Positions 6,626-31,406 of a stretch of DNA of 64,000 nt are shown here, piece after piece; position 1 is the stretch's first letter; the number at the start of each line of letters is the position of its first letter. Position numbers and translations under genes: made by a program. The DNA comes from an uncultured Candidatus Binatia bacterium (lineage in GTDB: Bacteria; Desulfobacterota; Binatia; UBA9968; JAJDTQ01), in contig OZ219754.1 in NCBI GenBank assembly GCA_964291295.2, forward strand, positions 512,001 through 576,000, given 5' to 3'. The notes under the pieces are model-generated. The model was not told the origin of the DNA. It did no database searches and saw only the letters and a program-made list of their open reading frames with translations.

Positions 6626-6637
6626 GATCGGCTCTCG

Positions 6638-8971: not shown

Positions 8972-8974
8972 GGC

Positions 8975-9457
8975 TTACGTCCCAGCTTTCATTTGTTCCG
9001 CGGCCTGCTTTACCGCGTCGACGATGTGCTTGTACCCGGTACAACGGCAGATGTTGCCTTCCAGCCCGTGGCGGATATCCTCTTCCGAGGGGCTCGGGTG
9101 CTCCTGGAGGAGTTGCCGCGTGGCCATGATCATGCCGGGAGTGCAAAAGCCGCACTGGAGGCCGTGACAGTCCCAGAAGGCTTCCTGTATCGGATGCAGC
9201 CCGTCGTCGGTGGCGAGGGATTCGATGGTTTCGACCTCGCACCCGTCCGCCTGCACGGCCAGCAGGGTGCAGGACTTCACCGCCGCCCCGTCCACCATGA
9301 CGGTGCAGGCACCGCACAGGCTGGTCTCGCAACCGATGTGCGTCCCGGTGAGACCGAGCACATCGCGCAGCCAGTGCACCAGCAACAGCCGTGGCTCCAC
9401 TTCCGCCGTCCGGCTCACACCGTTGACGCGAACTTCGATCGTGGTCTTCTTGCGCAT
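8975..9457 (-). CDS. coxS: CoxS-like 2x[2Fe-2S] subunit
   Basis: [28 protein letters not shown]. Confidence 0.93.
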
Positions 9458-9480
9458 GGTTCCTTGTCCTCGCTGAAGTC

Positions 9481-10659: not shown

Positions 10660-11034
10660 ATGGCGGACGACGCACGCAAGACATTCGAGGAAGTGTCCCT
10701 GGGCGCCGCGAACAAGGCTTACGACATCATCGCGAAGCTTGACCCCGAATACTCCCGCCACCTGACGGGGCTGTTCGTCGACGGGACTTTCGGGCGCGAG
10801 GGGGCGCTGGACCGAAAGACCAAGGAGTTGATCATGGTCGGCATCACCTGCGCCTTGAACCGACCCCGCGGCGTTCGACTTCACAGCGAACGGGCGCTCA
10901 AGGTCGGCGCCACGCCACGGCAGATTCTGGAGGCGGTGGAGGTGGCGGCCATACCGGGCGGGATGCCGGGACTGTGGCTCGGCGCCGAGACACTGGACGC
11001 CATCCTGCGCGAGCTGGGCCTGGAATTCAGATGA
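10660..11034 (+). CDS. Carboxymuconolactone decarboxylase/AhpD family protein
   Basis: GALDRKTKELIMVGITCAL...LHSERALKVGAT; AGGAG RBS. Confidence 0.88.
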   Translation: MADDARKTFEEVSLGAANKAYDIIAKLDPEYSRHLTGLFVDGTFGREGALDRKTKELIMVGITCALNRPRGVRLHSERALKVGATPRQILEAVEVAAIPGGMPGLWLGAETLDAILRELGLEFR

Positions 11035-11155
11035 CCCCGCAGGGCGGATGACCCCGCAGGGGTCGGTCATGACTCGACGATGGAACGGCTGATTCGCGGC
11101 GCGGGCCGGCTGCCGCGCGGGCCGGCTCGAACCCCGCCTGCTGCTTGAATCCCGC

Positions 11156-12208
11156 CTATGGATCGCCGGCGGGCTTTTCCGGGAAAAGCAGTTTGCGGAG
11201 GTGCACGATGATCTTCGGGTCCAGCGCGAACAGCCCCTTGACGGTTTCTTCGATGGACGCGCCGGTCACCGGGCGGACCTCCAACCCCCGGCTGTTGGCC
11301 TCGGCGACGAACGCCGGGTCGGCCACGGTGGCTGCAAACGCCTTGCGCAGCGCGGCCAGCCGCGTGCCGGCGGTCCCGGGAGGAAGCGCGTAGGCGCGCG
11401 CGATCTTCGCCGGGTCATGAACGCCGCTCATGAGGAGCATCCGGTCGTCCGGGGACTGGACCCGATCCAGGGCATTGGGCACCTCGGGCAGATCGGGGTG
11501 GGGCTCCGGCATGGCCTGCAGCACGACCTTGGCCTCTCTGGCGGCGAGCATCTTTCGCCACGCCGTCCTGACCGCCTGCCAGTACCCGCAGCCGCCTTCC
11601 ACCTCCTGGTTCCCGGCGGCCAGACGCACCTGGACCGGACCCCGGTATCCGTAGACAAGCTTGAGAGGCAGACCCAGGACCGCGCCGAGAACCCGCGCCA
11701 TGTTGGTGGTGGCGTCATCGCGGCCGATGCCGCCAAGCCGGACAGGCCGGTTGGCGCCGGCCCAAGCCGCCAGATCGTCGATACCGCTCGCCCTGGTCAG
11801 GACACAGACGGGATGCAGGGTCGAAACCGCACCCACCCAGCCGAAACGCCGGGTGTCGAGCCGGACTTCCCTGCCGCCGAATATCTGGTTGTGGATGATG
11901 TCGCCCGCCCAGTTGCCCACCGTCCGTCCGTCCGGTCTGGCTTCGCGGTAGAGGTACTCGGCGGCGACGACGCCGCCGCCGCCGACCATGTTCCGGACCA
12001 CCACCTCGGGGTGGCCCGGGAGATGGCGGCCAATGTGTCGGGACAGGACACGGGTGTGGTTGTCGAAGACGCTCCCGGCACCGGCGCCCACCACAAAGGT
12101 CAGGGTATGTGTCAGGGCATGTTCCCGTGCCGGGGCGTCCGCGCCGGAGACCGCCTGCAGCGCCAGCATCAGGGCCGCCGCGGAAAGACGGATGGGAAAC
12201 ATCGCCAC
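11156..12208 (-). CDS. Tripartite tricarboxylate transporter substrate-binding protein (Bug/TctC-like)
   Basis: Signal peptide, RHLPGHPEVVVRNMVGGGG, PDGRT, LPPGT. Confidence 0.85.
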   Translation of the reverse strand: MAMFPIRLSAAALMLALQAVSGADAPAREHALTHTLTFVVGAGAGSVFDNHTRVLSRHIGRHLPGHPEVVVRNMVGGGGVVAAEYLYREARPDGRTVGNWAGDIIHNQIFGGREVRLDTRRFGWVGAVSTLHPVCVLTRASGIDDLAAWAGANRPVRLGGIGRDDATTNMARVLGAVLGLPLKLVYGYRGPVQVRLAAGNQEVEGGCGYWQAVRTAWRKMLAAREAKVVLQAMPEPHPDLPEVPNALDRVQSPDDRMLLMSGVHDPAKIARAYALPPGTAGTRLAALRKAFAATVADPAFVAEANSRGLEVRPVTGASIEETVKGLFALDPKIIVHLRKLLFPEKPAGDP

Positions 12209-12271
12209 GGTGATCCGCCTCGCGCGTTGTGCAAGAAGGCTCGCTCGGGGGGACGCACGCGGTCTCTTCGG

Positions 12272-13414
12272 TCAGGCCCCGTTCAGCCTTGGCATGACCT
12301 CTTTGTGGAAGAGGTCCAGGGAGTCGATCACCTTGTCATGGGCCAGGTTGCCGATATGGAACATGCCCATGAAATGCTCGGCGCCGATCTGGCTCATCTG
12401 CTGGTTGACCTGCCGCGCCACCGTGTCCGGACTGCCGGCGATGACGAAACCGGTGTCCATGAGCTGCTCCCAACTCATGGGGTGGAAGTTGACCCGCGCC
12501 TCGTTGCCGGGACGGAAGTAGCTGGCGGATCTGGCGCTGACCATGGCCTCCTTGACCTTGCGCTGGTCAACGGCGATGTCCGTCCTGGCTTCGTTGAAGC
12601 CCCGATTCCACAAGGTGAAGAAATACCGCAACGGCGGCTCGGCCACCGCGCGCGCCTGTTGGTCCGTCTCGCCCACGTAGATGTGACGGCAGAGGATGAA
12701 CTTGTCGGGTCCGCTCTCCCGCCCGGCTTCCCCCGCCACCTTGCGGTAGTAGTTGAAGGTGTCCTCGATCTGGTCGACCGTCTGATACACCTGCGCGATG
12801 GGAACCTGACGTTTGACGCACCACTCGATGGATTCCGCGCTGCGCGCCGCCACCCAGATGGGCGGGTGCGGCTGCTGAACCGGTCGTGGCCAGATGGCGC
12901 AATTCTCGAACCGGAAGAACTCTCCCTCGTAGCTCCATACCGGTTCGGTCCAGGCGGTCATGATGACATCGAAGGCTTCGCCGAACCGACCGCGGGACTC
13001 CTGGGGCTTGACGTTGTACCAGAGATACTCCGAGGGAATGCCGCGGACGAACCCCGCAATCAGACGGCCCTCCGACAGACAGTCGATCATGGCGTACTCT
13101 TCCGCCACGCGCACGGGGTGCTGGCGCAGGGGCAGGATGTTGCCGAGCACGCCGATCTTGATGCGGCGGGTCTTCTGGCTCAGGGCGGCGGCGATGAGGT
13201 TCGGCGACGGCATGGTGCCGTAGGCGCTGTAGTGGTGCTCGTTGAACACCACGCCTTCGAACCCCAACTCTTCGCAATAGGCCATCTCCTCCAGGTGCTC
13301 GCGGTAGTTGCGCGAGCCCACCGGGGGATCGAAGTACGAACTCGGAACCGGCGTTCCGGGGACATCCTCCGGGACTTCCGGATAGGCCAACAGGTCGAAG
13401 TTGTAGACTTTCAT
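12272..13414 (-). CDS. LLM-class (luciferase-like) flavin-dependent oxidoreductase
   Basis: NEHHYS, PVRVAEEYAMID, PRPVQQPHPPIW, IAGSPDTV. Confidence 0.92.
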   Translation of the reverse strand: MKVYNFDLLAYPEVPEDVPGTPVPSSYFDPPVGSRNYREHLEEMAYCEELGFEGVVFNEHHYSAYGTMPSPNLIAAALSQKTRRIKIGVLGNILPLRQHPVRVAEEYAMIDCLSEGRLIAGFVRGIPSEYLWYNVKPQESRGRFGEAFDVIMTAWTEPVWSYEGEFFRFENCAIWPRPVQQPHPPIWVAARSAESIEWCVKRQVPIAQVYQTVDQIEDTFNYYRKVAGEAGRESGPDKFILCRHIYVGETDQQARAVAEPPLRYFFTLWNRGFNEARTDIAVDQRKVKEAMVSARSASYFRPGNEARVNFHPMSWEQLMDTGFVIAGSPDTVARQVNQQMSQIGAEHFMGMFHIGNLAHDKVIDSLDLFHKEVMPRLNGA

Positions 13415-13509
13415 CAGTATCCATCTCCTTCGCGAGCACGGCCCGGCCGGCGGATCGAAGGGCTCAAGCCTAGTCCCATCCCTCGGCCACTGTCAATCCA
13501 CGCGATGGA

Positions 13510-15522
13510 CTATCCCGTGAACACTTCGACCAGCGTTCCCGGCGGGAACGGAAGGCTCAGCGAATGGACGAAGATCGCGTGGAATCCGCCCCAGGCGAGG
13601 AGCGTCAGAAGGAGACTGACGAGCCATTTCTCTCCGGCCCCGACCTTGAGGAAGAGGAAGGTGCACAGCGGAACCGTGACCGGAAAGCCGAGCAGCCAGA
13701 TGGAGGCGAAGAAGCCGAGGATCCAGCCCACGATGGTCATCGTGCGCCGCACCACCACCGCGTCGGCTGCCGGGACGGCGATGCCGGCCCGCAGCAGTCC
13801 TTTCACGTCGATCCCCACTTGCGCCAGGGCGAGCACGATGCCGGGGAACCCGATGACCCAGGGGAACAGGCTGGCGCGGAATCCCCAGTCCCGGGCCTGC
13901 CACACGCCCCATGCGAATCCGGCCAGGATCACCACGGTGAAGGCGACATGCCAGCCCGTGACGGGCCTGGGCGCTTCGGCGGCCTCGCTCTCCGGTGCGG
14001 GCACGGCGACGGACGTGGACAGAGCTTCCCGTCTGGCATCGCGCCGCCGCTGGTACAACGGGTAGAGGATGCCCGCCAGAATGATCGCGCCGATGACCAA
14101 CACCCCCGGGAAGCCCACCCATGCCCAGCCGTAGTTGTCGGTGGCCAGGAACAGGTTCTTCTCGGCCAGCGAACCCAGCACCAGCCCCAGCAGCAGCGGC
14201 GGCCGCGGCCAGTCGAGCTGCACCATGACCCAGCCCACCAGACCGAAGGCCAGCACCACGATGAGATCCTCGAAGGCGTTGTTCTGGGCGAAGCCGCCCA
14301 GATAGATGAGCACCAGCAGGAACGGCAGCACCAGGCTGCCGCGCACTTCGGTGATGCGCGCGAGCTGTTTCAGGAAGATGAAACAGACCGAGACGGTGAT
14401 GATGTTCGAGACCACCACGATCCACACGAACGAAAACGTCAGATCGAGGTTTCCGCCCTGGCTGGCGGGCATCAGCATGGGCGGTCCCGGCACGAGACCC
14501 TGGATGATGAAGGCCCCCAGCAGGATGGCCATGGTGACGCTGCCCGGCACGCCGAAGGCGATGGTGGGCACCAGGGCGCCTCCGAGGTTCGAGTTGTTGG
14601 CGGCGCCCGGACCCAGCACGCCTTCCACCGCCCCCTTGCCGAAGCGCTCCTTGTCGGGGGAGGTCTGGACAGCGTGAGCGTAAGCGACCCACTGCGACAC
14701 CGCGCCGCCCATGCCCGGAATGATGCCGATGTAGGTACCGATGGCGCTGCAGCGCAGCACCAGGGCCCAGTGGCGAAAGGTATCCCTGACGCCGTCCATG
14801 ACGCCGCCCAGCTTCTCGATCTTCTTCTCCGAGATGCTCGAACCCTTGACCCAGAGTTCGACCACCTCCGGAATCGCGAACAAGCCCAGGGTCACGGGAA
14901 CCAGCTTGATGCCGTCCCAGAGATAGAGGCTGTCGAAGGTGAAGCGCTCGATGCTGGAAATCGGATCGAGTCCCACGGTGGCGAGCATGAGTCCGATGGC
15001 CGCGGCGGTGAGCCCCCTGATGATGGCCTCACCGCTCAGGGCAGCCAGAAAGGTGACCCCCAGCAGCGCCAGCATGAAGAACTCCGGCGATCCGATGGCA
15101 AGCACCAGCGGGCGGACGATGGGAATGGCCAGAGCCAGGGCAAAGGCGCCGAAGATGGCCCCCACCAGAGAACTCATGAGCGACGCCCCCAGAGCGCGCC
15201 CGGCCTCGCCCTTCTTGGCCATGGGATGACCGTCGACAATGGTGGACGCGGTAATGGCCTCGCCGGGAATGCCGAACAGGATGGAGGTGATGTCGCCGGT
15301 GGTTGCGGTAACGGCGGACATGCCGAGCAGGAAGGCGAAGGCTTCCACCGCCTCCATCTTGAAGATGAATGGCAGCATCAACGCCAGCGTGACGGGTCCG
15401 CCGAGTCCGGGAAGGATGCCCACGGCGAACCCGATCACGATACCCAGCATCATGAGCGTGAAGGTCGTGGCCGTGAAGACTTGTGCCAAGCCTCCGGCAA
15501 AGGCCTGAAGCATTTCACCCAT
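13510..15522 (-). CDS. tctA: TctA permease fused to a C-terminal TctB-like domain
   Basis: GILPGLG, DGHPMAKKGEAGRAL, ANNS, PTIAFGVPGS; extra four-TM tail ending LPFPPG. Confidence 0.9.
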   Translation of the reverse strand: MGEMLQAFAGGLAQVFTATTFTLMMLGIVIGFAVGILPGLGGPVTLALMLPFIFKMEAVEAFAFLLGMSAVTATTGDITSILFGIPGEAITASTIVDGHPMAKKGEAGRALGASLMSSLVGAIFGAFALALAIPIVRPLVLAIGSPEFFMLALLGVTFLAALSGEAIIRGLTAAAIGLMLATVGLDPISSIERFTFDSLYLWDGIKLVPVTLGLFAIPEVVELWVKGSSISEKKIEKLGGVMDGVRDTFRHWALVLRCSAIGTYIGIIPGMGGAVSQWVAYAHAVQTSPDKERFGKGAVEGVLGPGAANNSNLGGALVPTIAFGVPGSVTMAILLGAFIIQGLVPGPPMLMPASQGGNLDLTFSFVWIVVVSNIITVSVCFIFLKQLARITEVRGSLVLPFLLVLIYLGGFAQNNAFEDLIVVLAFGLVGWVMVQLDWPRPPLLLGLVLGSLAEKNLFLATDNYGWAWVGFPGVLVIGAIILAGILYPLYQRRRDARREALSTSVAVPAPESEAAEAPRPVTGWHVAFTVVILAGFAWGVWQARDWGFRASLFPWVIGFPGIVLALAQVGIDVKGLLRAGIAVPAADAVVVRRTMTIVGWILGFFASIWLLGFPVTVPLCTFLFLKVGAGEKWLVSLLLTLLAWGGFHAIFVHSLSLPFPPGTLVEVFTG

Positions 15523-15721
15523 GGTCGTCGGCTTTCAGTGGAGAGAGGTTCCCCGGGTCGGAGGTTCAACCGGGTCGGAACTTCGCCCGGGCGGTCGGGA
15601 AGGATCGATCAGGAACTCGCTTTCGAAACTTGAAATCGAAACCCGAAATAATGCGCGGTGACTTGGCGCGGTCACCAACGCGCCGTGACGAGCGGCGGCC
15701 TGCAATGCGCCGGCCGCGCAT

Positions 15722-15770
15722 GGAACCGTCCGCCGGCGCATGCGCCCGGGCGCGGCCGGGGGACGGTTCC
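15722..15770. terminator. Stem-loop downstream of tctC (terminator or mRNA stabiliser)
   Basis: GGAACCGTCC...GGACGGTTCC 10-bp inverted repeat; no clear U tract. Confidence 0.4.
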
Positions 15771-15797
15771 TCCATTCGATTCGCAACTGCTTCGCAA

Positions 15798-16856
15798 CTA
15801 CTTCTTCGCCAGGAGGACGTCCTTCAACAAGGACAGCGTGCTGTCATCCATGGCGTAGATGCCGTTCATCTTCTTCGCCACCCATTCGCCGCCGTGGGGG
15901 TTCACTTCCAGCTTCGACTTCTCGGCGTTGGCCAGCAACTCGGGGTCCGCCAAGGTGGCCATGAACGCCTTCTGAAGCGTCCTGACCCGGTCCGCGGGCA
16001 CTCCCGGCGGCAGGCTGTAGGGCCGTGCCACGGCGCGGTAGACATCGGCGGCCACTTCCAGGAGCTTCATGCCGGTTTCACCCTTGGCCAGACCGGTCGC
16101 CACGGGCACGTTCATGAGTTCCGGGTGTTTGTCGGGGCCCACCTGGAGAACCGGCTTGACATTGCCGCTCTCGATGCCCTGCCTCCAGGTCGGCTTGATC
16201 GACTGCCACGCCCAGCAGCCGCCGTCCAGTTCGCCCTTCTCCGCCGACACCCGTATGATCGCCGTACCGGAATAACCCTCGACGACCTTCATCGGCAGAC
16301 CCGTTGCCGCCTTGAGCAGCTTGGGCACGTCATCGGTGGTGGAGCCCGGTGCGGTGGCGCCGATCTTGATGGGCCTCTTGGAGTTGATCCAATCTTCGAT
16401 GCTGTTGATGCCGCTGGCCTTGGTGAGCGCGCACACGTTGTCGTCGGTGGACGGCACACCCAGCCAGTTGAACTTGCGGCCGTCGAACTGGACTCCCCTC
16501 TTGCCGAGAACGTGCTGCAGCACCAGCGGGCCGATCCAGTTGCCGACGGTCAGACCGTCCGGCTTGGCCTTGTTGTAGAGGTAGTTGGCGGCGATCAGGC
16601 TGCCCGCGCCGGTGCGGTTCTGAACCACCGTCCTGGGGTTGCCGGGAACGTGTTTGCCGAAGTGGCGGGCAATGAGGCGCGTGTAGGTATCGAAACCGCC
16701 ACCTGGCGAGAAGCCCACCACGAAACGAATGGTCTTGCCCTTGAAAAAGTCGTCCGCTCCCATGGAGAGCGACGGGACCAATGCAAGAACCAGCAACGCG
16801 AGCATGGCCCTGCACAAAAATCGACCGGACATTCGATCGAACATGACACTGAACAT
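15798..16856 (-). CDS. tctC: Tripartite tricarboxylate transporter substrate-binding protein
   Basis: FFKGKTIRFVVGFSPGGGFDTY, NRTGAGSLIAANY, KPDGLT; GGGAGG RBS before 16856. Confidence 0.9.
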   Translation of the reverse strand: MFSVMFDRMSGRFLCRAMLALLVLALVPSLSMGADDFFKGKTIRFVVGFSPGGGFDTYTRLIARHFGKHVPGNPRTVVQNRTGAGSLIAANYLYNKAKPDGLTVGNWIGPLVLQHVLGKRGVQFDGRKFNWLGVPSTDDNVCALTKASGINSIEDWINSKRPIKIGATAPGSTTDDVPKLLKAATGLPMKVVEGYSGTAIIRVSAEKGELDGGCWAWQSIKPTWRQGIESGNVKPVLQVGPDKHPELMNVPVATGLAKGETGMKLLEVAADVYRAVARPYSLPPGVPADRVRTLQKAFMATLADPELLANAEKSKLEVNPHGGEWVAKKMNGIYAMDDSTLSLLKDVLLAKK

Positions 16857-16989
16857 AACGAGCCTCCCATGCGTCGTCGGACGCCGCAATGACACCAAAC
16901 CTTCCCTTGTTTCACAAATCCGGGCCAAAGAAAAGGGCGAATGGGGAAAAATTTGCCAGGATGCGACCGCGTACCCATCCCCGGGGGGG

Positions 16990-17035
16990 TTGACCTCGGA
17001 GTGGACAGGCATTAAAGTGAGCGAACGCTCGTTTG
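16990..17035 (+). promoter_or_regulatory. sigma70 promoter with a TetR/PaaR-type operator at +1
   Basis: TTGACC(16990)-N17-TAAAGT(17013); CGAACGCTCGTTTG at 17022-17035; palindrome GAGCGAACGCTC at 17019-17030. Confidence 0.65.
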
Positions 17036-17122
17036 GTAGATTGCGAAAACGGAAACCGGTACTGACGAGGGAAACCGACAAGGGAATTGTCAAGAGAACT
17101 GGCGAGGGAAAAGGCGAGAGAG

Positions 17123-18223
17123 ATGACGAGAATATCGAATTTCGACGACTGGATCGACTGCTTCAGGGAATGGCAGCGGGACATCGGCTATGACGCCGAC
17201 CTGCTGGGCGGCTACAGGTTCGAGACGAAGCTGGGCGAGTTGCATGGCGACGATATCGAGTTCGGCGACTACCAGGGCAAGGCCAAGTGGGAGCGGGTGG
17301 GCCAGATACCGAACCAGTCCATCCGGGACGCCCTGCTCACCCTCATCGTCTATCAGGGCGACACCGAGTTCGCCTCCGTCGAGCAGCAGAAGAACCTGCT
17401 CGACAACGCTCCCACCGAATACGATCGCCAGGCGCTGATACGCATCAACAGCGACGAGATGCGGCACGGCTGGCAGATGTGTTACCTGCTGATCAAATAT
17501 TTCGGCGACACCGGCAAACTGGAGGCGCGCAAGCTTCTGGAGCGCCGGGCCAGCGAGCGGAAGCGCCTGCTGGGGTCGTTCAACCAGCCGGTGCACAACT
17601 GGCTGGACTTCTTCACCTACACCCAGTTCGTGGACCGGGACGGCAAGTTCCAGCTCACCATGCTCAGCCACTCCGCCTTTGCGCCGCTGGCGCGCAGCGT
17701 CTCGGCCATGCTGAAGGAGGAGTTCTTCCACATGTTCACCGGAAACACCGGCCTCACCCGCATCGTCAGGGCGAACCGGATCCCGCCGCGGATCATTCAG
17801 AAGTATTTCAACAAGTGGCTGTCCACCGCCTATGACCTCTTCGGCACCGACGACTCCTCGTCGGCGCATTGGGCCTACGTCTGGGGCCTCAAGGGCCGCT
17901 TTGACGAGGCCACCGCCGGCGAGCCCGCGGACAAGGCAAGGCTCAACGAGCTGGCTCGCCATCGATATCTCGACGAGTGCCGGGGGTTGGTGGACAATCT
18001 CAACCGCTTCCTGCCCGACGGCGCACCCGGCCTCCGGGTTCCGGACGTCAGGTTCAACCGCTCCATCGGCGACCACGCCGGCATGCCCTACAGCGTTGAC
18101 GGCGACTTGCTCTCCGAAACGGAATATGAGAAACACCTTCTCGAGGTGCTTCCCGGCACCGAGGACGATTTCGTCCTGAACGAGATATTCAAGGACAAGG
18201 ACTGGGTTCTTCAGATGAACTAG
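17123..18223 (+). CDS. BoxB-like / PaaA-family di-iron aryl-CoA ring epoxidase (short form)
   Basis: QGDTEFASVEQQ, DEMRH, RLLGSFN, DRDGKFQL, EEFFH match BoxB di-iron ligand segments. Confidence 0.85.
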   Translation: MTRISNFDDWIDCFREWQRDIGYDADLLGGYRFETKLGELHGDDIEFGDYQGKAKWERVGQIPNQSIRDALLTLIVYQGDTEFASVEQQKNLLDNAPTEYDRQALIRINSDEMRHGWQMCYLLIKYFGDTGKLEARKLLERRASERKRLLGSFNQPVHNWLDFFTYTQFVDRDGKFQLTMLSHSAFAPLARSVSAMLKEEFFHMFTGNTGLTRIVRANRIPPRIIQKYFNKWLSTAYDLFGTDDSSSAHWAYVWGLKGRFDEATAGEPADKARLNELARHRYLDECRGLVDNLNRFLPDGAPGLRVPDVRFNRSIGDHAGMPYSVDGDLLSETEYEKHLLEVLPGTEDDFVLNEIFKDKDWVLQMN

Positions 18224-18246
18224 CCGTTACGACCCGGTCGCCGCGA

Positions 18247-18278
18247 ACGGGTTGCCTCATCGACGGGTTGCCTCATCG
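18247..18278. repeat. Perfect 16-bp tandem duplication
   Basis: ACGGGTTGCCTCATCG x2. Confidence 0.9.
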
Positions 18279-18364
18279 TCCTGGACGAAGAATCCCGTGA
18301 AAGACCCGTGGCTGCCGTGCGGTCTCCGTGCGGTTCTTGTCCCGTCCCGAGCAAGGAGAACCCC

Positions 18365-18688
18365 GTGAATCGTTTTTGCCTCGTCTGTCAGAATGTCGAC
18401 TGCAAGAGTCGAGGCTCCGAAGAGTTGATGCAGGAGCTGCAGGAACGGGTGGCGGCCAAGGGGCTGGACGACGTGGAGGTGCGTTCGTACATGTGTTTCG
18501 GTGCCTGCCAGGACGGCCCCAACCTGGTCATCTATCCGGACAAGTGCTGGTACGCCGGGGCCACGAAAGCGGATGTCGATGACATCGTCGAACACCTGGC
18601 CGGCGGCCCGCCCGTGGAGCGGCTGGACAAGGTCGACCCTTCGCTCAAGGAACTCATCTACCAATTGCTCGACACCGGGGTCTTTTAG
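18365..18688 (+). CDS. Thioredoxin-fold [2Fe-2S] ferredoxin (NuoE-like domain)
   Basis: CQNVDC...CFGACQDGPNLVIYPD; GTG start after AAGGAG. Confidence 0.88.
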   Translation: MNRFCLVCQNVDCKSRGSEELMQELQERVAAKGLDDVEVRSYMCFGACQDGPNLVIYPDKCWYAGATKADVDDIVEHLAGGPPVERLDKVDPSLKELIYQLLDTGVF

Positions 18689-18693
18689 CCGCC

Positions 18694-19926
18694 ATGGAAG
18701 GCATCCTGTTGCCGGGAGGCGTGGCCCAGGGACTCGAGGGGCTTGACGCCTATCGCTCCAGGGGCGGTTACGAGGCCGTCAGCCGACTGGCGCAACTGTC
18801 CCCTCGGGACGTCATCGCCATGGTGGAGGCCTCCGGCCTGCGCGGCAGGGGAGGCGCCGGCTTCCCCACGGGCAGAAAGCTGTCACTTACCCTGGAATGC
18901 CCCGACACGCCCCACTACGTGGTCATGAACGGGGGCGAAGATGAGCCCGGCAGCCACAAGGACCGCGTGCTCATCGAGAATGTCCCCCACCTCGTCCTTG
19001 AGGGAGTCCTTCTCGCGGCCTACGCGGTGAAGGCGGAGAAGGCTTACCTCTACATCAACCACGGATACGAGCGGGCGATGGCGGCTGCGGAGACCGCCAT
19101 GCGGGACGCCCGGGATGCGGGCTACTGGGGCAGGAACATCGCCGGCTCCGGTTTCAGTCTGGAACTGGTGACCGTCCCCGCACCGTCCAGCTACGTGGCC
19201 GGAGAGGACACCGCCGCCCTGGAGGTCATCGAGGGCAAGGAGCCGCTGCCGCGGCAAAAGCCCCCGTTCCCGGTCACGGCCGGACTGTTCGGCAGGCCCA
19301 GCCTGGTCAACAACGTGGAGACGCTGGCCAATATCGCGCCCATCGTCGCCAGGGGACCCGAGTGGTTCCGCTCCTTCGGCACCGGCGAGAACCCCGGAAC
19401 CATGCTCTTCTCGCTAGGCGACGAGATGGAGCGGCCCGGCGTCTACGAGCTGCCCCTGGGGACCCCGCTGCGCTACCTGCTGGAAGAGTGCGGCGGCGGA
19501 TTGAAGGGCGGCAGGCGCATCAAGGCCCTGCTTCCGGGAGGGCCGTCATCGGGATTTCTGCTGTCCGATCACCTCGACATCCCCTTGGACCGCGACGCCT
19601 TGCGCGAGGCCGGCTCTTCCATCGGATGCGGCGCCGTCAAGGTTCTCGCCGAAGACGACTCGGTGGTGGACGAGGTGGTGCGGATCGCGGAATTCTTCGC
19701 CAGAGAGTCCTGCGGCCAATGTCCGGCATGCCGCATGGAAACGAACATGCTGGTGGCGCTGCTCAAGAAGGTTCAGCAGGGCGGGGGGAACGATGCGATC
19801 GTGGAGCAGCTGGAGAAAGTGATCACCTTCAACCGGGGAAAAGGGTTCTGCAGCCTGATCAACATGCCTGGCCCGCCCATCGAGAGCGCCGTCCGGCTTT
19901 TTCCGGAAGAGTTCCGCGGCGCCTGA
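18694..19926 (+). CDS. Stand-alone NuoF/HoxF-like NADH-binding FMN/[4Fe-4S] protein
   Basis: SGLRGRGGAGFPTG, EPGSHKDR, GEDTA, KPPFP, NNVETLAN, ESCGQCPACR...FC. Confidence 0.92.
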   Translation: MEGILLPGGVAQGLEGLDAYRSRGGYEAVSRLAQLSPRDVIAMVEASGLRGRGGAGFPTGRKLSLTLECPDTPHYVVMNGGEDEPGSHKDRVLIENVPHLVLEGVLLAAYAVKAEKAYLYINHGYERAMAAAETAMRDARDAGYWGRNIAGSGFSLELVTVPAPSSYVAGEDTAALEVIEGKEPLPRQKPPFPVTAGLFGRPSLVNNVETLANIAPIVARGPEWFRSFGTGENPGTMLFSLGDEMERPGVYELPLGTPLRYLLEECGGGLKGGRRIKALLPGGPSSGFLLSDHLDIPLDRDALREAGSSIGCGAVKVLAEDDSVVDEVVRIAEFFARESCGQCPACRMETNMLVALLKKVQQGGGNDAIVEQLEKVITFNRGKGFCSLINMPGPPIESAVRLFPEEFRGA

Positions 19927-19938
19927 CAGGCCATCACC

Positions 19939-20124
19939 TCACAGATCGAGGTTCTTCTTCGGCACGTTGAAGACCACCCCCTCGCCGTTCCGCACCAGGC
20001 ACATGTCGTTGCTCCACTCCTTGACCACTTCCAGTTCGTCTCCCGGCGAAAAACTCGCTTCCTCGATGCCGGAATTCTTGGTTGACTGATATTTGCAGTT
20101 GAACGCTTCCTTGACCGTGGCCAT
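19939..20124 (-). CDS. Small 61-aa protein with a putative SH3-like fold
   Basis: Strong GGGAGG RBS, high-GC3 codon use; SFSPGDELEVVKEW...G...VPKKNL. Confidence 0.7.
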   Translation of the reverse strand: MATVKEAFNCKYQSTKNSGIEEASFSPGDELEVVKEWSNDMCLVRNGEGVVFNVPKKNLDL

Positions 20125-20202
20125 CCCCGGCCCCTCCCTTCTTTTCCGTTCCGTGTGCCGGCTTTCAGGATTCGCGGGCGACGGGCGGAATCGAAACCCG
20201 TC

Positions 20203-20904
20203 CTACAAGTCGTCCCGCCCGCCGTTCTCCCGCCACTTTCCACGGCGGGTCGGGTAGCGCAATGCCTCCTGGAGACACTTCAGGAAGGCCCTTCGGGACA
20301 CCTCCCGGGCACCGAGACTGCATATATGAGAGGTTGTAACCTGCGCATCGATGAAATGAAAGTCCCAGCCTTCCAGCCGGTGGACCAGCGCCGCCAGCGC
20401 CACCTTCGACGCGTCCGTCTCACGGTGAAACATCGATTCGCCGAAGAAACCCCTGCCCAGGGCAATGCCGTAGATACCGCCGGCAAGGTCCGTCCCGAGC
20501 CAGCTCTCCACCGAGTGAGCCAGCCCCGCTTCGTGGAGCCGCACATACGCCTGTTCCATTTCCGGCGTGATCCACGTGCCGCTTTGCCCCGCCCGCTCGA
20601 CGGCCGCGCATGCCCCGATCACGCCGCGAAAGTCCTCATCGAAGGTAACCCGGAACTTCCTCCGGTTCAGGACGCGCCGCAGCCGCCGGGAGACGTGGAA
20701 GTCTTCGAGCTTGAGGATGCACCGGGGGTCCGGCGACCACCAGAGGATCGGCTGACCCTCGCTGTACCAGGGAAAGATGCCCATGGAGTAGGCCAGCACA
20801 AGGCGAGCGCTGCCGAGGTCGCCTCCCACCGCCAACAACCCGTCGGGTTCCGCCTCGTGCGGGGAAGGAAAAGCGAGCTCGCGGCTCAAGCGATGGACCG
20901 GCAT
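20203..20904 (-). CDS. aat: Leucyl/phenylalanyl-tRNA--protein transferase
   Basis: GLLAVGGDL, GIFPWY, WWSPDPR, TWIT, FFGESMF, ASKVAL. Confidence 0.95.
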   Translation of the reverse strand: MPVHRLSRELAFPSPHEAEPDGLLAVGGDLGSARLVLAYSMGIFPWYSEGQPILWWSPDPRCILKLEDFHVSRRLRRVLNRRKFRVTFDEDFRGVIGACAAVERAGQSGTWITPEMEQAYVRLHEAGLAHSVESWLGTDLAGGIYGIALGRGFFGESMFHRETDASKVALAALVHRLEGWDFHFIDAQVTTSHICSLGAREVSRRAFLKCLQEALRYPTRRGKWRENGGRDDL

Positions 20905-21194
20905 GGAGAGGACCATGGTGCGGAATCCGTCCGGTGGATGCAAGGAATGAACGACTTGCCGCCGGTTTCGCTGCCGCGCTCGTGTCCGGCGAGGGCCGAC
21001 GCGGGCAGGTCCGGCGCTCCATTCGGGAGCGGACTCGGTTGTCGACAGGCCGGGGCGGGGTTTCGTCCTCGGGGAACCACCGTCAACCGTTCACGACACC
21101 ACGGCGGTCAAATCGTCGCCGCCGGCGGCACCGGTCCGGAACTCCAGGGACATCGGACGGAAATCGTGCTATAAGCCAAGGCAGCGAGAACGCC

Positions 21195-21563
21195 ATGTTC
21201 AGGAGAATCGACCATGTGGCGCTCCATGTCGCGGACCTGGATCGCACCACCACCTTCTACGAGGAACACTTCGGCTTCCGGACGTACTTTCGACACCGGA
21301 CCGACGCCGGGATGCAGATCGCGTACCTCAGGCTGGGGGACACCGTGCTGGAGTTGACCCACAAGAGCGACGGCTCCATGACGGGCTTTCACTTGTGCCT
21401 GGAGACGGACAGCTTCGACGAGACCGTGGCGGAGCTGCAACGACGAGGCGTCCCGCTCCTGCGGGCGCCCCACGGCACCGCCGCCCGGGAGCCGCGCGAA
21501 AAGGGCTGGCGCCGGGTCGTCTTCGGCGGCCCGGACGGCGAGCAGATCGAACTGCGCGGCTAG
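21195..21563 (+). CDS. VOC/glyoxalase family protein
   Basis: IDHVALHVADL, FHLCL, GPDGEQIEL. Confidence 0.88.
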   Translation: MFRRIDHVALHVADLDRTTTFYEEHFGFRTYFRHRTDAGMQIAYLRLGDTVLELTHKSDGSMTGFHLCLETDSFDETVAELQRRGVPLLRAPHGTAAREPREKGWRRVVFGGPDGEQIELRG

Positions 21564-21597
21564 CGGGCTGTCCGGCCGCAGCGCGGAAGGAGACCTC

Positions 21598-21906
21598 ATG
21601 CCGGACCCGCAAGCCGCGACCCTCAAGCTCGCTTGTCCCTGCTGCGGCGCGACCCTGATCGTGGACCCCGCGCTGGCGGTGGTGCTGCGGCACGAGGTAC
21701 CGCCACCCCGACACAAGGCGCCGGACCTCAAGGACGCCGACCGCCTGCTTCGGAACGAGGCGACACAGCGCGATCAGAAATACCGCGACATCCTCGACGC
21801 CGAAAAGGACAAGGGAAAAGTACTCGACCGCAAGTTCCAGGAGCTTTTCAAAAAGGCCAGGGACGAGCCCATCGAGAAGCCCCTCAAGGACATCGACCTG
21901 GACTGA
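21598..21906 (+). CDS. Hypothetical protein with N-terminal Zn-ribbon-like CPCC and coiled-coil tail
   Basis: AGGAG RBS; CPCCGATL; charged helical C-terminus. Confidence 0.75.
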   Translation: MPDPQAATLKLACPCCGATLIVDPALAVVLRHEVPPPRHKAPDLKDADRLLRNEATQRDQKYRDILDAEKDKGKVLDRKFQELFKKARDEPIEKPLKDIDLD

Positions 21907-21935
21907 CCGGCTCGGCACTGCCCGGGTCGAACCCG

Positions 21936-22550
21936 TTACGGCGGACCCGCGGGCACCGCCTCGCGGCCCGCCGCCTCGTAGCCGTATGCGAGTTCGAGCA
22001 ACTGCTTGACCATGCGTGCCGTGGCCCCCCGGATGTCCCACTCCTGGTAGCGAAAATGGTAGATGGGTCCGGACCTCCCGGACCGGTGGTGGTCCAGGGT
22101 CGGGGCCTCCTGGCACAGCAGCGCGGCCACCGGCACGGAGAACACCGCAGCGGTTTCGCGCGGGTCGGGACGGAACTCGTACGGATGGGGAATGATCCCC
22201 ACGAAAGGGGTGACCCGGAAGTTGTAGCCCGCCATGACTTGGTCGAGCTGGCCCAGGACGCGCACATGGCCGGGATCGACACCGATCTCTTCCCGGGTCT
22301 CCCGCAACGCCGTGGCCAGCGCGCTGCCGTCCTCCGGATCGGTGCTCCCGCCCGGAAACGCCACCTGCCCACCGTGGGAACTCAGATGCTGCGCCCGCAG
22401 GGTGAGGATCAGGCTGTCGCCGTCCGGACGTTCCTGGATGGGCACCAGGACGGCGGCCGGCCGGAAGTCATCTCCGGCCGCGGCCAAGGGCGTCCTGGTC
22501 CGCAGGATCTCGAATCTTTCGGAGCAGACAAACACCTCTGCCACTGTCAT
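21936..22550 (-). CDS. Nudix CoA pyrophosphatase
   Basis: AAVLVP, LTLRAQHLSSHGGQVAFPGG, ALRETREEIG, IRGATA. Confidence 0.9.
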   Translation of the reverse strand: MTVAEVFVCSERFEILRTRTPLAAAGDDFRPAAVLVPIQERPDGDSLILTLRAQHLSSHGGQVAFPGGSTDPEDGSALATALRETREEIGVDPGHVRVLGQLDQVMAGYNFRVTPFVGIIPHPYEFRPDPRETAAVFSVPVAALLCQEAPTLDHHRSGRSGPIYHFRYQEWDIRGATARMVKQLLELAYGYEAAGREAVPAGPP

Positions 22551-22597
22551 TGAACGGCCGGCGCGGCGGCAGGGTGGCGTTGCCGCCCCGGCCCACG

Positions 22598-22927
22598 CTA
22601 GTTCTCCGGCTTCAGCGACTCGGGAAAGTAGCGTGACGGGAACCAGACCTGGGCATCGAAGTTCGTACACCCGAGAATCCGCAACTCGCGCATGACCCGG
22701 ATGTAGTCCTGCGACTCGATGTAGTGCTCCCACGCCTGGAGACTCTCGAATTCGATCATGATGGCGACCTGGGGGCTGACCTCCAGCGGGTTGCGGAGAT
22801 TGCGGATCTCCCTGACCCCGGGAGCCGCCAGCGTCATCGGCAGCCAGTCGTTCTTGGCCTTGTTGCTGTAGATGGTCAGGTTGGCCTTCTGATCCGGCAG
22901 GTCCCACTGGATGATGTAATGTACCAT
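22598..22927 (-). CDS. Small dimeric alpha-beta barrel (EthD/DUF1330-like) protein
   Basis: AGGAGG RBS; PGVRE...IEFESLQAW pattern. Confidence 0.65.
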   Translation of the reverse strand: MVHYIIQWDLPDQKANLTIYSNKAKNDWLPMTLAAPGVREIRNLRNPLEVSPQVAIMIEFESLQAWEHYIESQDYIRVMRELRILGCTNFDAQVWFPSRYFPESLKPEN

Positions 22928-22968
22928 GGCTCCCTCCTTTTCGTGTCCGCCCCCCGTGCGGGGCCGCC

Positions 22969-23760
22969 CTACATGAGCGTCCTGACCAGACCCCCGTCGA
23001 TCAGGAGCGCCGTCCCGGTAATGTAGCTCGCCCGCTCCGACCCGAGAAAGACAACCAGGTCCGCCACTTCCTCGGACTGCCCGAAGCGGCCCAGGGCAAT
23101 CTCGGCCTTGCTCTGTTCCTGGACCTTCTCCAGTGGCAGGTTGAGCCGCCTGGCCCGGGCCACGTTGAGGTTGTGGTGGCGCTCGGTGTCGATGCGCCCC
23201 GGCATGACCGTGTTGATGAGAATGTTGTCGGCCGCCAGCTCGCGCGACAGCGTCTTGGTCCAGCCCACCACGCCGGTGCGGAACGTGTTGGACAGGATCA
23301 GTCCGGGTATGGGCTCCTTGATGCCGTAGGAGGTGATATTGATGATGCGTCCCGCGCCCGCCTTCTTCATGTGCGGCACCGCCTCCCGCGTAAGCCGGAC
23401 CGTGCCCATCAGGCTCAGATTGTAGGCCGCGGCCCAGTCTTCCTCGCTCAACGCGTCGAACGCTCCGAACGGAGGCCCGCCGGCGTTGTTCACGACCACA
23501 TCCACCCGGCCGAAGGCCTCGACGCTCCTGTCCACGAAATTTCGTATGTCGTCATACTTCGACATGTCCGCCACTGTGGCAACGACCTCTCCCCCCGTGG
23601 TCTCGCGAATCTCCCGTGCGGCGCGCTCCAGCGCCTCGCCGCCTCTGGCGCAGATGCCGACCTTCGCGCCCTCGGCGGCGAAACCGCTGGCGATGGCCCG
23701 CCCCATCCCCTGACTCGCACCACCCACCAACGCCACCTTGCCTGCCAGTCCCAGATCCAT
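22969..23760 (-). CDS. SDR family oxidoreductase
   Basis: GASQGMG, NNAGGP, PGRIDT, SYITG. Confidence 0.92.
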   Translation of the reverse strand: MDLGLAGKVALVGGASQGMGRAIASGFAAEGAKVGICARGGEALERAAREIRETTGGEVVATVADMSKYDDIRNFVDRSVEAFGRVDVVVNNAGGPPFGAFDALSEEDWAAAYNLSLMGTVRLTREAVPHMKKAGAGRIINITSYGIKEPIPGLILSNTFRTGVVGWTKTLSRELAADNILINTVMPGRIDTERHHNLNVARARRLNLPLEKVQEQSKAEIALGRFGQSEEVADLVVFLGSERASYITGTALLIDGGLVRTLM

Positions 23761-23790
23761 CCGAACTCCTCTCCGGGCTGCCGGAGCCCC

Positions 23791-23815
23791 GGTGCCCGCC
23801 TGCGGGGCGGGCACC
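23791..23815. terminator. GC-rich intergenic hairpin
   Basis: GGTGCCCGCC-tgcgg-GGCGGGCACC. Confidence 0.45.
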
Positions 23816-23820
23816 CGCCC

Positions 23821-24066
23821 TCACTTCTGCGTCCAATAGATATTGTCGTCGAACTCCGGGTCCAGCCGCATCAGGTAGAGCGCCAGCATGCCGTGAGCGC
23901 CCAGTGGCCGCAGTTGCCGCGGATCCCGCATCCTGATGGCGGCGGCCTCCTCCGCGCTCAGTTCGTAGTCCGACAAGGTTTTCTCCAGATCCGTCCGCGC
24001 CCGACTCAAGGTGTCGGGTTTCATCTTCAGGTCGAAAAGAAAGCGGTTCAGGTGGTAGCGGCTCAT
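23821..24066 (-). CDS. LigA-like small subunit of an extradiol dioxygenase
   Basis: MSRYHLNRFLF...YELSAEE...LGAHGML; adjacent to a LigB-like gene. Confidence 0.75.
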   Translation of the reverse strand: MSRYHLNRFLFDLKMKPDTLSRARTDLEKTLSDYELSAEEAAAIRMRDPRQLRPLGAHGMLALYLMRLDPEFDDNIYWTQK

Positions 24067-24117
24067 GCGATGCTCCGGTGGACCCGCGCAGGTGGACGCC
24101 GGCGCAGCGTGCCCGGG

Positions 24118-24981
24118 TCAGATCTTCCAGCTGGCAAAGCCCCACCCGGTTGCGACGTGGTCGGGCATGTAGAAGGTTGCGGAAGCCGGGGAGTCGCTCA
24201 CCGCCCCGATGGCCACCATCCAGTTCAGGAACTCGGAGTTGCCCGACTGCCGCAACTGTTCGAGCGTCAGCTCCGCCAGGGCAGGCCCCTCGCCGGCACG
24301 CATCCGTTGAAGCAGCCCTTCGTCGAAGCGGGTTTCGATCTCGCCGATGCGCGGGGACCCGGGAAAGTGCGACAGGCCGCCGGTGGCGAGGATGGCGACC
24401 CGGTCGGCGGCGGCGTCCGCCACCCCGCGAACCAGGTTTCCCAGCGCATAACACCGCGCGGGAGTGGGCAACGGGTCGATCCAGGTGTTGACGAAGAGGG
24501 GCAGGATGGGGATCCGCGGTTCCGGCAGAAGGAAATGCAGCGGCACCAGCTGGGTGTGCTGCAACTCGATGTCCTCGCCAAAGGAGAGATCCAGGCCCGC
24601 AGCCACGCCGGCCTCCAGAATGGCCCGTCCCAGCGCCGGCTGATTCCGGTAATGGAACCGGTAGCGCGTGAACCGGCCGTGGAGCTCCTCCGCCAACGTC
24701 ACGAAGAATGTCGGTATGTTGTCGAAGAAAAAATTCACGAACTGGTCGTTGGCCACGACCACCAGCACGTCGGGTCTGGCGGCCTGCAGGTCGGAGCGGA
24801 GCACGGCGAAGGCATCCTCGGCGTCCCGGCGCAACCTCCGCTGCACCTCCAGCGAGGGCCGGGTACCGGCCGCCTGCGGCGCCATGCGGTAGTGGAGCTT
24901 CATGAACTCTTCCCACTCGGCGCCCGGATCGAGCAGAATGTTGGGGGCGTGGCTCGCGGCCAGCGCGGCGACCAGCGGCAT
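24118..24981 (-). CDS. LigB-family (class III) extradiol ring-cleavage dioxygenase
   Basis: ASHAP, RPDVLVVVANDQFVNFF, TGGLSH, GNSEFLNW. Confidence 0.88.
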   Translation of the reverse strand: MPLVAALAASHAPNILLDPGAEWEEFMKLHYRMAPQAAGTRPSLEVQRRLRRDAEDAFAVLRSDLQAARPDVLVVVANDQFVNFFFDNIPTFFVTLAEELHGRFTRYRFHYRNQPALGRAILEAGVAAGLDLSFGEDIELQHTQLVPLHFLLPEPRIPILPLFVNTWIDPLPTPARCYALGNLVRGVADAAADRVAILATGGLSHFPGSPRIGEIETRFDEGLLQRMRAGEGPALAELTLEQLRQSGNSEFLNWMVAIGAVSDSPASATFYMPDHVATGWGFASWKI

Positions 24982-28296: not shown

Positions 28297-29642
28297 TCAC
28301 CCGGTCCAGCGGAGCCGTACGACCTCTTCGCGCAGGTACTGTCGGCTGGCAGTGGCGAGTCGCGTCCGAAACAGGTCAATGCCGGCCAGTTCGTAACCGA
28401 GACTCTGAGCGAGTTCGCCGAGGATCTGCCCGGTCCTGATCATGACTCTGAGGTACGATGCCTGGTCTCCAACGACGTACGCAAGCCTCGCACCCGGACG
28501 CAGCCGACTCCTGAGGCTCGCCAGATGTCGGACCATTCCTCCAAAGTACAGTTTCGTGACTCTCGCGTACTGGCGTTCGAACCCTGACGTCTTGCCCTGC
28601 TCAACTCGGCGGGCTTCGATCAGTTCAGCGATTCGCTGAATACCCTCGTGTCCGGCGACCAGGGCATCGTCAGTATCCGCCTTGTACACGCTTCGCGTAT
28701 TCGATCGGATGAGTCCCTGCTTCAGGCATCGCAGATCCTGTTTGTCCCGGAAAAAGCCGAGCACACACCCTCAAGGCGCGTCGTCCGCGTGTAGTCCTTC
28801 TCGTTTGGGTATGGCGGGGAGGTGATGACGACATCGATGGACGACGGCTCCAGGTAGTCCTCCAACCGACGGGCATCCCCAAGGTGGACTTTGGCGTCCG
28901 TTCCGTCTCGTTGCCGCAACGCCGCGAGGTCATCGGCCATCGTCGTGACGCGGCTCAGCCATGGCCCGACCACCGGAGCGTCCTCCTGAAGTCGCCCAAC
29001 GCCGACTTCCGGACCGAAATGCAGCTTGCCGATTCCCGAGATGAGCGCCGCTGCGAGCGCGAGTCGCTCGTGAGAGCAGAACGCGTCTTGGCGGTGCTGG
29101 TCGAGAATATCCAGCAACAGCAGCGTCTTGTGAAGCGGTAGCGGGCTGATCGAGTTCTTTGGCAGAAGCTTCAGCTTGTCGGGAGGTAACGTCTGGAGGT
29201 GGACCGTCGGGGTGACGTTCGCCGGGAACAGTGGTGCCATCCCGAAGTCGTCGATTCCTTGATGCCGAAGCAGATCGAGCGCTCGGGCGGCTGCCTCCTT
29301 GGCGTGGGATACGAGCGTGTCAGGGTCGACGCTCCAATCGATTTTGGTGCGGCTCGCGAACCCAGCCATCGGGTTGCGTTCGATCCCGACGCTCGGGATC
29401 CCAAGCTTTTTGCACTCGACCAGCGTCGTCCCGGTGCCGCAGAACGGGTCCAGTACCCGCTGCCTTGAATCGACGCAAAACGTGTCGAGGTAGTCGCGCA
29501 CGAGGTGCGACGGGAATGAGAGAACAAAGCGGTACCAGTTGTGAACGGCACGATCTTCAGGCCTGAGCCGATTCCGCTCCGGGGTTTTTCTTGCACTGGT
29601 TTCGGGAGCGGTTGTCACGGCCGGACTGCTGGTGTCAGTCAT
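28297..29642 (-). pseudogene. N4-cytosine-type DNA methyltransferase, frameshifted
   Basis: DPFCGTGTT and TSPPY; frame change near 28765 in a GTGTGTG run, continuing LGFFRDK...YVVGDQ...LREEVV. Confidence 0.85.
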
Positions 29643-31282: not shown

Positions 31283-31406
31283 CCCATCGACACTACAGCG
31301 CCGGATCGACCTTGGCAACGCGCGCGCGGTCTGCCAGATTGCGTGGGCGGACAACCGCCGCCCCGGACGAAATGAACAGCGTTTCCATGAACCGCGCATC
31401 GCCACG

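Follow-up and report, generated by a model that had tools for sequence, protein, structure and literature searches.

The 'hybrid' aerobic benzoate and phenylacetate routes are entered through di-iron epoxidases that act on aryl-coenzyme A (aryl-CoA) thioesters, and we know of only two reductase solutions for these enzymes, BoxA and PaaE. A three-part logic is also found in the multicomponent soluble di-iron monooxygenases such as toluene 4-monooxygenase, where an NAD(P)H flavoprotein and a small [2Fe-2S] shuttle serve a di-iron hydroxylase, but these systems use a different hydroxylase family, a Rieske-type ferredoxin, a ferredoxin-NADP+ reductase (FNR)-type reductase and an effector protein. 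NuoF-like modules have a precedent in the benzoyl-CoA metabolism of deltaproteobacteria-like anaerobes, whose class II benzoyl-CoA reductase BamB-I includes the NuoEFG-like BamGHI; this large bifurcating complex is, however, a tungsten enzyme of anaerobic ring reduction and not an O2-dependent di-iron oxygenase. In the available text of PMC4498308, BoxA is described as an NADPH-specific protein with two [4Fe-4S] clusters and flavin adenine dinucleotide (FAD), and PaaE as a class IA FAD/[2Fe-2S] fusion reductase. No description of a NuoF-type donor for a BoxB-like or other di-iron epoxidase was found in the literature searched. The accessible part of a recent preprint (10.1101/2025.11.25.690425) reports numerous benzoyl-CoA pathway annotations in metagenome-assembled genomes (MAGs) of Binatota and Acidobacteriota and does not describe such a coupling. 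The locus analyzed here lies in a 64,000-nucleotide stretch of DNA from an uncultured Candidatus Binatia bacterium (GenBank GCA_964291295.2, contig OZ219754.1, positions 512,001 to 576,000; hereafter the window), where three adjacent genes encode a BoxB-like di-iron protein, a small ferredoxin and a NuoF-like flavoprotein.

The three genes are co-oriented on the forward strand at 17123-19926 (Table 1). We propose that they encode a self-contained, three-component O2-dependent di-iron oxygenase. NAD(P)H would give a hydride to the flavin mononucleotide (FMN) of the NuoF-like flavoprotein, single electrons would pass via its [4Fe-4S] cluster to the thioredoxin-like [2Fe-2S] ferredoxin, and the ferredoxin would reduce the di-iron center of the compact BoxB-family enzyme. 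The di-ferrous site would then bind O2 and epoxidize the ring of an aryl-CoA, most likely benzoyl-CoA or a close analogue. Taken as a whole mechanism, from NAD(P)H to the aryl-CoA epoxide, this scheme is held with slightly better than even confidence; the feeding of the oxygenase by the two redox proteins, the order of the carriers, the choice of nucleotide and the substrate of this particular clade are its predicted parts. Judged from sequence, the locus may represent an uncharacterized compact BoxB family that is served by its own, new type of reductase and whose catalysis is predicted. The arrangement would share the three-part logic of the toluene 4-monooxygenase-type systems, with the effector protein absent at the window locus.

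Conservation among relatives provides the first line of evidence. More than 5000 protein clusters match the oxygenase at E <= 1e-5, the best 120 of which are all 340-375 amino acids (aa) long and 73-100% identical, and 544 of 599 pattern matches in species-representative genomes were confirmed as oxygenase relatives. Gene neighborhoods were sampled at 80 related loci with 8-kb flanks, using open reading frames (ORFs) from a picker based on G+C content at third codon positions (GC3). The triplet clade comprises 28 of these loci (L001-L027 and L067), with oxygenases at least 71% identical to that of the window, and is monophyletic (Shimodaira-Hasegawa-like approximate likelihood ratio test, SH-aLRT, 99) in a 43-row tree drawn from 30 of the 80 loci and 12 database representatives. 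A ferredoxin gene lies directly downstream of the oxygenase gene in 28/28 of these loci, and a NuoF-like gene comes next in 27/27 with enough contig, the contig of L003 ending at the ferredoxin. The picker misses genes: it called the NuoF-like gene in 24 of the 28 loci, against 27 by tblastn.

The ferredoxin and flavoprotein genes are separated by 3-9 bp in 25 of 27 loci (5 bp in the window), the oxygenase and ferredoxin genes by a median of ~60 bp (range 16-371), and the ferredoxin starts with GTG in 27 of 28 loci. The flanks, by contrast, change, with PtsP upstream in 19 loci and a TctC-like gene in six, and at least seven different genes downstream. Persistence of the triplet in every testable locus despite these changes argues that the adjacency is more than chance; the three genes are a conserved unit, and the conserved triplet that the earlier note on this DNA had suggested looking for in relatives was found. 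Between loci, pairwise identity in one of the three proteins tracks that in the others (r = 0.70-0.86), a correlation to which kinship alone contributes. One member, L067, has an oxygenase gene (8001-9105) that is split near 8795/8803 into two frames, 80% and then 51% identical, which is a frameshift or an assembly error.

The di-iron protein itself resembles BoxB most closely. It matches the Pfam family PaaA_PaaC (PF05138) at 7e-16, its best curated family is TIGR03225 boxB (1e-67), and among solved structures phmmer places BoxB (PDB 3PER, 3e-53) ahead of the Sulfolobus protein 4MUD (5e-20) and PaaA (~1e-9). The DTE, DEMRH, DRDG and EEFFH segments quoted in the earlier note are present in the translation. 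Residues were mapped through the phmmer alignment using the BoxB names of PMC5489048, with which the alignment numbering agrees. The six di-iron ligands listed in the available text of that paper (E120, E150, H153, D211, E240 and H243) align to E82, E112, H115, D171, E200 and H203 of the window protein. In a 66-row alignment, they are conserved in 42/42 rows of the short family (24/24 triplet, 18/18 solo, the latter being the paralogues described below). The same available text names seven second-shell residues of the benzoyl pocket (Q116, T119, S123, F193, F203, F206 and T210); five of the seven, Q116, T119, S123, F193 and F203, have equivalents in the window oxygenase, and the other two are exchanged (F206 for Tyr166 and T210 for Val170).

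An AlphaFold2 model of the oxygenase, built from the same 66-row alignment, reached a predicted local distance difference test (pLDDT) score of 95.2. The top ten Foldseek matches of this model were all BoxB chains (E ~1e-24), with query-normalized template modeling (TM) scores of 0.88-0.90; the top match scored 0.90 over the whole query and 0.70 when normalized to the target. 4MUD and PaaA followed far behind (TM ~0.5, PaaA ~0.55). Because BoxB comes first by such a distance, the window protein is predicted to be a trimmed BoxB-fold protein, with the fold of the BoxAB benzoyl-CoA 2,3-epoxidase of Azoarcus evansii (PDB 3PM5, 3PER, 3Q1G). The identification as a BoxB-type di-iron protein therefore stands on the six ligands, five of seven pocket residues and the fold. 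The phylogeny against BoxB that the earlier note had envisaged was obtained in part: in the 43-row tree, the short proteins split from the BoxB-length sequences (SH-aLRT 98), in addition to the support for the triplet clade given above.

The window system is more distant from PaaABC(D)E, the phenylacetyl-CoA epoxidase, than from BoxAB. Both are di-iron systems of the same Pfam family, acting on aryl-CoA in the case of PaaABC(D)E, and the proposed chain would run from NAD(P)H through a flavin and a [2Fe-2S] cluster to the di-iron center, as it does there. The match to PaaA is, however, much weaker (49.3 bits against the TIGR02156 cut-off of 280), and PaaB, PaaC and PaaD are missing from the locus.

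The substrate class is suggested by the other 52 of the 80 loci, which hold 'solo' paralogues that are 58-63% identical to the triplet clade and have no NuoF-like gene. Their neighbors include enoyl-CoA hydratase (22 loci), TetR regulators (15), 3-hydroxyacyl-CoA dehydrogenase (13), aldehyde dehydrogenase (11), an Hcr-like Mo-hydroxylase (7) and a 3-oxoadipyl-CoA-type thiolase (4), with CoA-transferases in three further loci. The large subunit of the Mo-hydroxylase at L034 exceeds the 4-hydroxybenzoyl-CoA reductase alpha cut-off (1006 vs 995 bits); the beta and gamma subunit representatives fall below theirs. In five long fusion proteins, the oxygenase domain is combined with an enoyl-CoA hydratase, an aldehyde dehydrogenase or an AMP-binding ligase domain, and no reductase domain is present in any of the five. 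Two loci of the clade that is sister to the triplets, L031 and L077, have the ferredoxin gene directly downstream of the oxygenase gene with a 26-bp gap, and both carry a divergent regulator with a helix-turn-helix (HTH) and a shikimate-kinase domain. This regulator passes the NF006015 model 'anaerobic benzoate catabolism transcriptional regulator' (315 bits vs 204). According to the available text of PMC3602430, an HTH plus shikimate-kinase architecture is that of BzdR, which senses or binds benzoyl-CoA.

The location of many solo genes amid aryl-CoA-type pathway and regulator genes supports an aryl-CoA substrate for the family, and the company of hydratase, aldehyde dehydrogenase, thiolase and a BzdR/BoxR-type regulator is a further likeness to BoxAB. 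By analogy with these paralogues, the triplet clade would also act on an aryl-CoA. The 'aryl-CoA ring epoxidation' of the earlier note is thus supported for the family through the solo context, and finds no such support in the neighborhoods of the triplet clade itself.

In 13 of 52 solo loci (e.g. L034, L043 and L079), the hydratase genes next to the oxygenase have a Mug/UDG-family DNA glycosylase gene between them, and a MutY-like gene lies directly downstream of the oxygenase in four (L045, L064, L068 and L076).

Several observations weigh against carrying the BoxB function over to the triplet enzyme. It scores 229 bits, in three stretches, against the TIGR03225 equivalog cut-off of 499.1. 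It is also 366 aa long, against ~473 aa for BoxB, with ~107 BoxB residues missing (~41 N-terminal, ~20 at BoxB 256-277, ~24 at BoxB 327-354 and ~23 C-terminal). The two pocket changes hold throughout the short family, with Tyr at position 206 in 42/42 rows and Val or Ile at position 210 in 42/42; the BoxB-length rows of the same alignment have Phe at 206 in 18/19 and Thr at 210 in 17/19, so the exact substrate may differ from that of BoxB. Among the 28 triplet loci, none has an enoyl-CoA hydratase, aldehyde dehydrogenase, hydroxyacyl-CoA dehydrogenase or thiolase neighbor, and their surroundings are housekeeping-like or variable (PtsP, radical SAM, aat, glyoxalase). The 32 scanned of 66 further triplet-neighbor ORFs yielded no CoA ligase, the 34 dropped being mostly short singletons, and no BoxA- or BoxC-like gene was found in the 28 loci.

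These observations would fit a redox triad that works as proposed with an oxygenase other than a catabolic benzoyl-CoA epoxidase. The triplet enzyme might instead use another CoA thioester (substituted aryl or non-aromatic) or another substrate altogether, or have a constitutive role in epoxide deoxygenation, detoxification or biosynthetic hydroxylation; a possible deoxygenase activity of BoxB is discussed in the available text of PMC5489048. A division of labor is also suggested by two complete genomes in which a triplet copy occurs alongside a solo one, OZ244617.1 (L004 and L048) and OZ220710.1 (L002 and L053). However, the Tyr/Val pocket signature is common to the solo paralogues in aryl-CoA-type clusters and so does not separate the clades, the five retained pocket equivalents are those of BoxB, and the identity between the two clades remains at 58-63%. 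We regard this alternative as a serious one, yet rather unlikely, and retain benzoyl-CoA or a close analogue as the favored substrate.

The second gene encodes the putative electron shuttle. The ferredoxin matches the Pfam family 2Fe-2S_thioredx (PF01257) at 5.6e-8 (33.2 bits against a gathering score of 24.8), and this match is limited to profile positions 68-144 of 145, the thioredoxin-like half. Four cysteines (Cys8, Cys13, Cys44 and Cys48) in a Cx4C...Cx3C pattern are invariant in a 30-row alignment, in which the C-terminal tail is also conserved. Among solved structures, the ferredoxin comes closest to the N-terminal domain of HydB (7q4v_B, 1.5e-13) and to Aquifex ferredoxin 4 (1f37, 2.6e-13). 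NuoE homologues match at E ~2e-3 only, the TIGR01958 NuoE model gives 32.5 bits against a cut-off of 142.4, and the N-terminal helical domain of NuoE is missing from the 107-aa protein. The designation 'NuoE-type' in the earlier note was accordingly abandoned.

The third gene encodes a flavoprotein with the full NuoF domain set (Complex1_51K, SLBB and NADH_4Fe-4S). The FMN loop GLRGRGGAGFPTG is invariant across 28 orthologues, as are residues including G48, G51, G53, G54, A55 and F57, and the cysteines C340, C343, C346 and C386 of the N3 cluster. The flavoprotein shares its three domains, the glycine loop for FMN and the N3 cysteines with NuoF of the NuoF/NuoE pair, HydB, HoxF, FdsB and NfnB; in contrast to those systems, no gene for another subunit of complex I, of a hydrogenase or of formate dehydrogenase lies near the window triplet. 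Similarity to solved structures is nearly equal for complex I NuoF (1e-98 to 1e-100) and for NfnB and HydB (1e-92 to 1e-94). The score against TIGR01959 NuoF is 409.6 bits for a cut-off of 558.65, and other NuoF models are likewise not reached. For these reasons, the 'repurposed complex I module' of the earlier note was rejected as stated. Together, the ferredoxin and the NuoF-like protein resemble a minimal HydB core divided between two proteins, not NuoEF, as far as the sequence comparisons go.

Bifurcating HydB carries a C-terminal ferredoxin domain. The window flavoprotein has no such extra domain and ends directly after the N3 cluster domain, which fits a simple, non-bifurcating diaphorase, in agreement with the earlier argument against bifurcation. 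The unusual nucleotide-site variants remarked on at that time are a signature of the clade: NGGEDEPGS and YVAGEDTA stretches occur in 28/28 orthologue rows, and a flavoprotein-centered database search found NGGEDEPG in 117 and YVAGEDT in 112 of 119 relatives. Relative to Thermus thermophilus Nqo1 and Mycobacterium smegmatis NuoF, NADESEPG is changed to NGGEDEPG, YICGEE to YVAGED, and the GAGAY loop to APxxY (APSSY in the window). We take D94, E97, Y180, C182, E184, E185, K202 and F205 of Nqo1 to be nucleotide-site residues of complex I NuoF; among them, D94, C182 and E185 are changed to G81, A169 and D172 in the flavoprotein, and the equivalents of E97, Y180, E184, K202 and F205 are retained. 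Complex prediction for the three proteins, with the oxygenase as the partner, scored 0.00 in both runs, which were made without controls, and speaks neither for nor against binding.

The proposed reductase differs from BoxA in kind, as an FMN/[4Fe-4S] NuoF-like protein with a separate [2Fe-2S] ferredoxin would take the place of that single reductase. We give even chances to the view that the NuoF-like flavoprotein and free ferredoxin form an unrecognized class of dedicated oxygenase reductase feeding this compact and widespread BoxB branch, in which case the triad would be ancestral to the branch and may serve solo paralogues in trans. Locus L033 bears on its age: 1.7 kb downstream of the solo oxygenase, past a GlpC-like gene, it holds broken ferredoxin and NuoF-like remnants (10750-11531), the latter fragmented and with an in-frame stop codon. 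These remnants suggest that the triad is older than the triplet clade, and hint that the reductase was lost in the sister clade.

A number of points stand against a dedicated reductase. The 52 of 80 relatives with no adjacent reductase indicate that the oxygenase evidently can use other donors. The flavoprotein lacks both the GAGAY loop and the ADE-motif Asp of NuoF. The closest relatives of the window belong to uncultured Binatia, and the triplet loci probably come mostly from this one lineage, with a common PtsP-triplet synteny, so that part of the conservation is shared descent. Five loci (L014, L018, L020, L024 and L025) are labeled Verrucomicrobiia, Eisenbacteria, Udaeobacter or Limnocylindrales, and have near-identical proteins; where upstream sequence exists, these contigs show the radical SAM-PtsP-triplet synteny of Binatia. 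Their labels may therefore be binning errors, and the taxonomic breadth of the triplet may be overstated.

Given the relatives with no adjacent reductase and the shared Binatia synteny, the flavoprotein and ferredoxin could be a soluble NAD(P)H:ferredoxin-type diaphorase of general use, with a main client other than the oxygenase, inherited in synteny within one lineage, and the oxygenase would be fed by a BoxA-like or other reductase encoded elsewhere in the genome; a scan of 86 of the 98 neighbor ORFs around solo loci detected no domain of FNR or BoxA type, the 12 left out being very long or very short. We consider this improbable. The triplet outlasts a change of both flanks, and the 3-9 bp spacing and short first gap suggest a single transcript. 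The ferredoxin alone stays with the oxygenase in the sister-clade loci L031 and L077, L033 keeps redox-gene remnants near its solo oxygenase, and the flavoprotein signature in 117 of 119 relatives is specific to the clade. That the adjacency is accidental or an annotation artifact, with functionally unrelated genes, is very improbable given the arrangement in 27/27 testable loci with variable flanks and co-varying divergence, even though the 141-bp gap could hold a separate promoter and the promoter and terminator scans were not significant.

If the dedicated-reductase reading is correct, it would add a third reductase solution and widen the repertoire of oxygenase electron-transfer chains, with a new use of the NADH module of complex I and hydrogenases. 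The module through which NADH enters respiratory, hydrogenase and formate dehydrogenase complexes would then also have been co-opted, by abundant uncultured soil bacteria, for activating O2 on aromatic CoA esters. Current automatic annotation labels the oxygenase 'benzoyl-CoA 2,3-dioxygenase component B' and the flavoprotein 'NADH-quinone oxidoreductase subunit F'. For MAGs of Binatia and Acidobacteriota, reconstructions of aromatic carbon turnover and inventories of complex I would both be led astray by such labels.

The earlier note had placed three co-oriented genes behind one promoter; the gene layout with its two gaps was confirmed, and the promoter proved to be a chance-level site. The candidate upstream of the di-iron gene is weak evidence, since a scan of 16700-20300 returned one site against 0.5 expected in shuffled sequences. 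No terminator-like site was found within the 141-bp gap that follows the oxygenase gene, in a scan at chance level, and the hairpin 3' of the third gene is not significant (three terminator-like sites in the region, 3.0 expected). This gap is longer than the median in relatives, partly because of a perfect 16-nt tandem duplication at 18247-18278. An AAGGAGA sequence lies 6 nt upstream of the GTG start of the ferredoxin gene. An Rfam scan of the window found no family at gathering score.

Table 1. Coordinates of the three-gene locus and of other features in the 64-kb window.
Feature	Position	Strand	Remarks
Compact BoxB-family di-iron oxygenase gene	17123-18223	+	ATG start at 17123, stop at 18223; 366 aa
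Thioredoxin-like [2Fe-2S] ferredoxin gene	18365-18688	+	GTG start; 107 aa
NuoF-like FMN/[4Fe-4S] flavoprotein gene	18694-19926	+	ATG start; 410 aa
Intergenic gap, oxygenase to ferredoxin	18224-18364	no strand	141 bp
Sigma-70-like promoter candidate	16990-17018	+	TTGACC-17 nt-TAAAGT, 9/12 positions match; upstream of di-iron gene
Weak terminator-like hairpin	19936-19952	+	5-bp stem; 3' of third gene
Upstream block, divergent from triplet	11156-17093	-	TctC-like (431 aa, weak Pfam match), fused TctA/TctB permease, luciferase-like monooxygenase, second TctC-like
Downstream genes	20203-24981		aat (Leu/Phe-tRNA protein transferase, -), NUDIX protein, SDR
Glyoxalase-fold protein	20934-21563		
LigB-type extradiol dioxygenase	24118-24981		
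DNA methylase	28722-29642		
ThsB-TIR-like gene	29765-30142		
AddAB-like nuclease/helicase pair	31059-37906		
DDE transposase	43413-44411		
AbiEi	44997-45614		
GmrSD	53767-56337		

Pfam or NCBIfam scans covered ~55 further ORFs of the window. Among these, no boxA, boxC, paaBCDE, nuo, hox or hyd gene was found, in line with the earlier note, and neither an FNR-type reductase nearby nor any other reductase gene of the window was detected in the family scans; no nuo gene was found in the related loci. The accompanying statement that no fdh gene is present is essentially right. The gene at 40790-43072 (-) encodes a molybdopterin oxidoreductase of the MopB family that has an Fe4S4 domain at its N terminus, and its best curated match is formate dehydrogenase alpha, far below the cut-off (278 vs 666 bits). 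An ORF for a TauD-family dioxygenase (39682-40893) follows this gene.

The tripartite tricarboxylate transporter (TTT) genes and the luciferase-like monooxygenase gene of the divergent upstream block were considered as parts of the system and rejected. They stand beside the triplet only in its six closest relatives (L001-L006), PtsP being upstream in 19 others. The downstream synteny at 20203-24981 is common to the closest relatives.

Two gene sets for molybdenum hydroxylases of the xanthine dehydrogenase family are present elsewhere in the window. The set at 5768-9478 (-) is closest to glyceraldehyde or CO dehydrogenase models, under their cut-offs. The large subunit of the other, at 56600-60255 (+), has 4-hydroxybenzoyl-CoA reductase alpha as its best curated match (516 bits vs 995). 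The region ~27000-56400, with the genes from the DNA methylase to GmrSD of Table 1, looks like a defense or mobile island, and G+C content, ~67% for the window, dips to 0.605 at 28-30 kb and to 0.586 at 44-46 kb.

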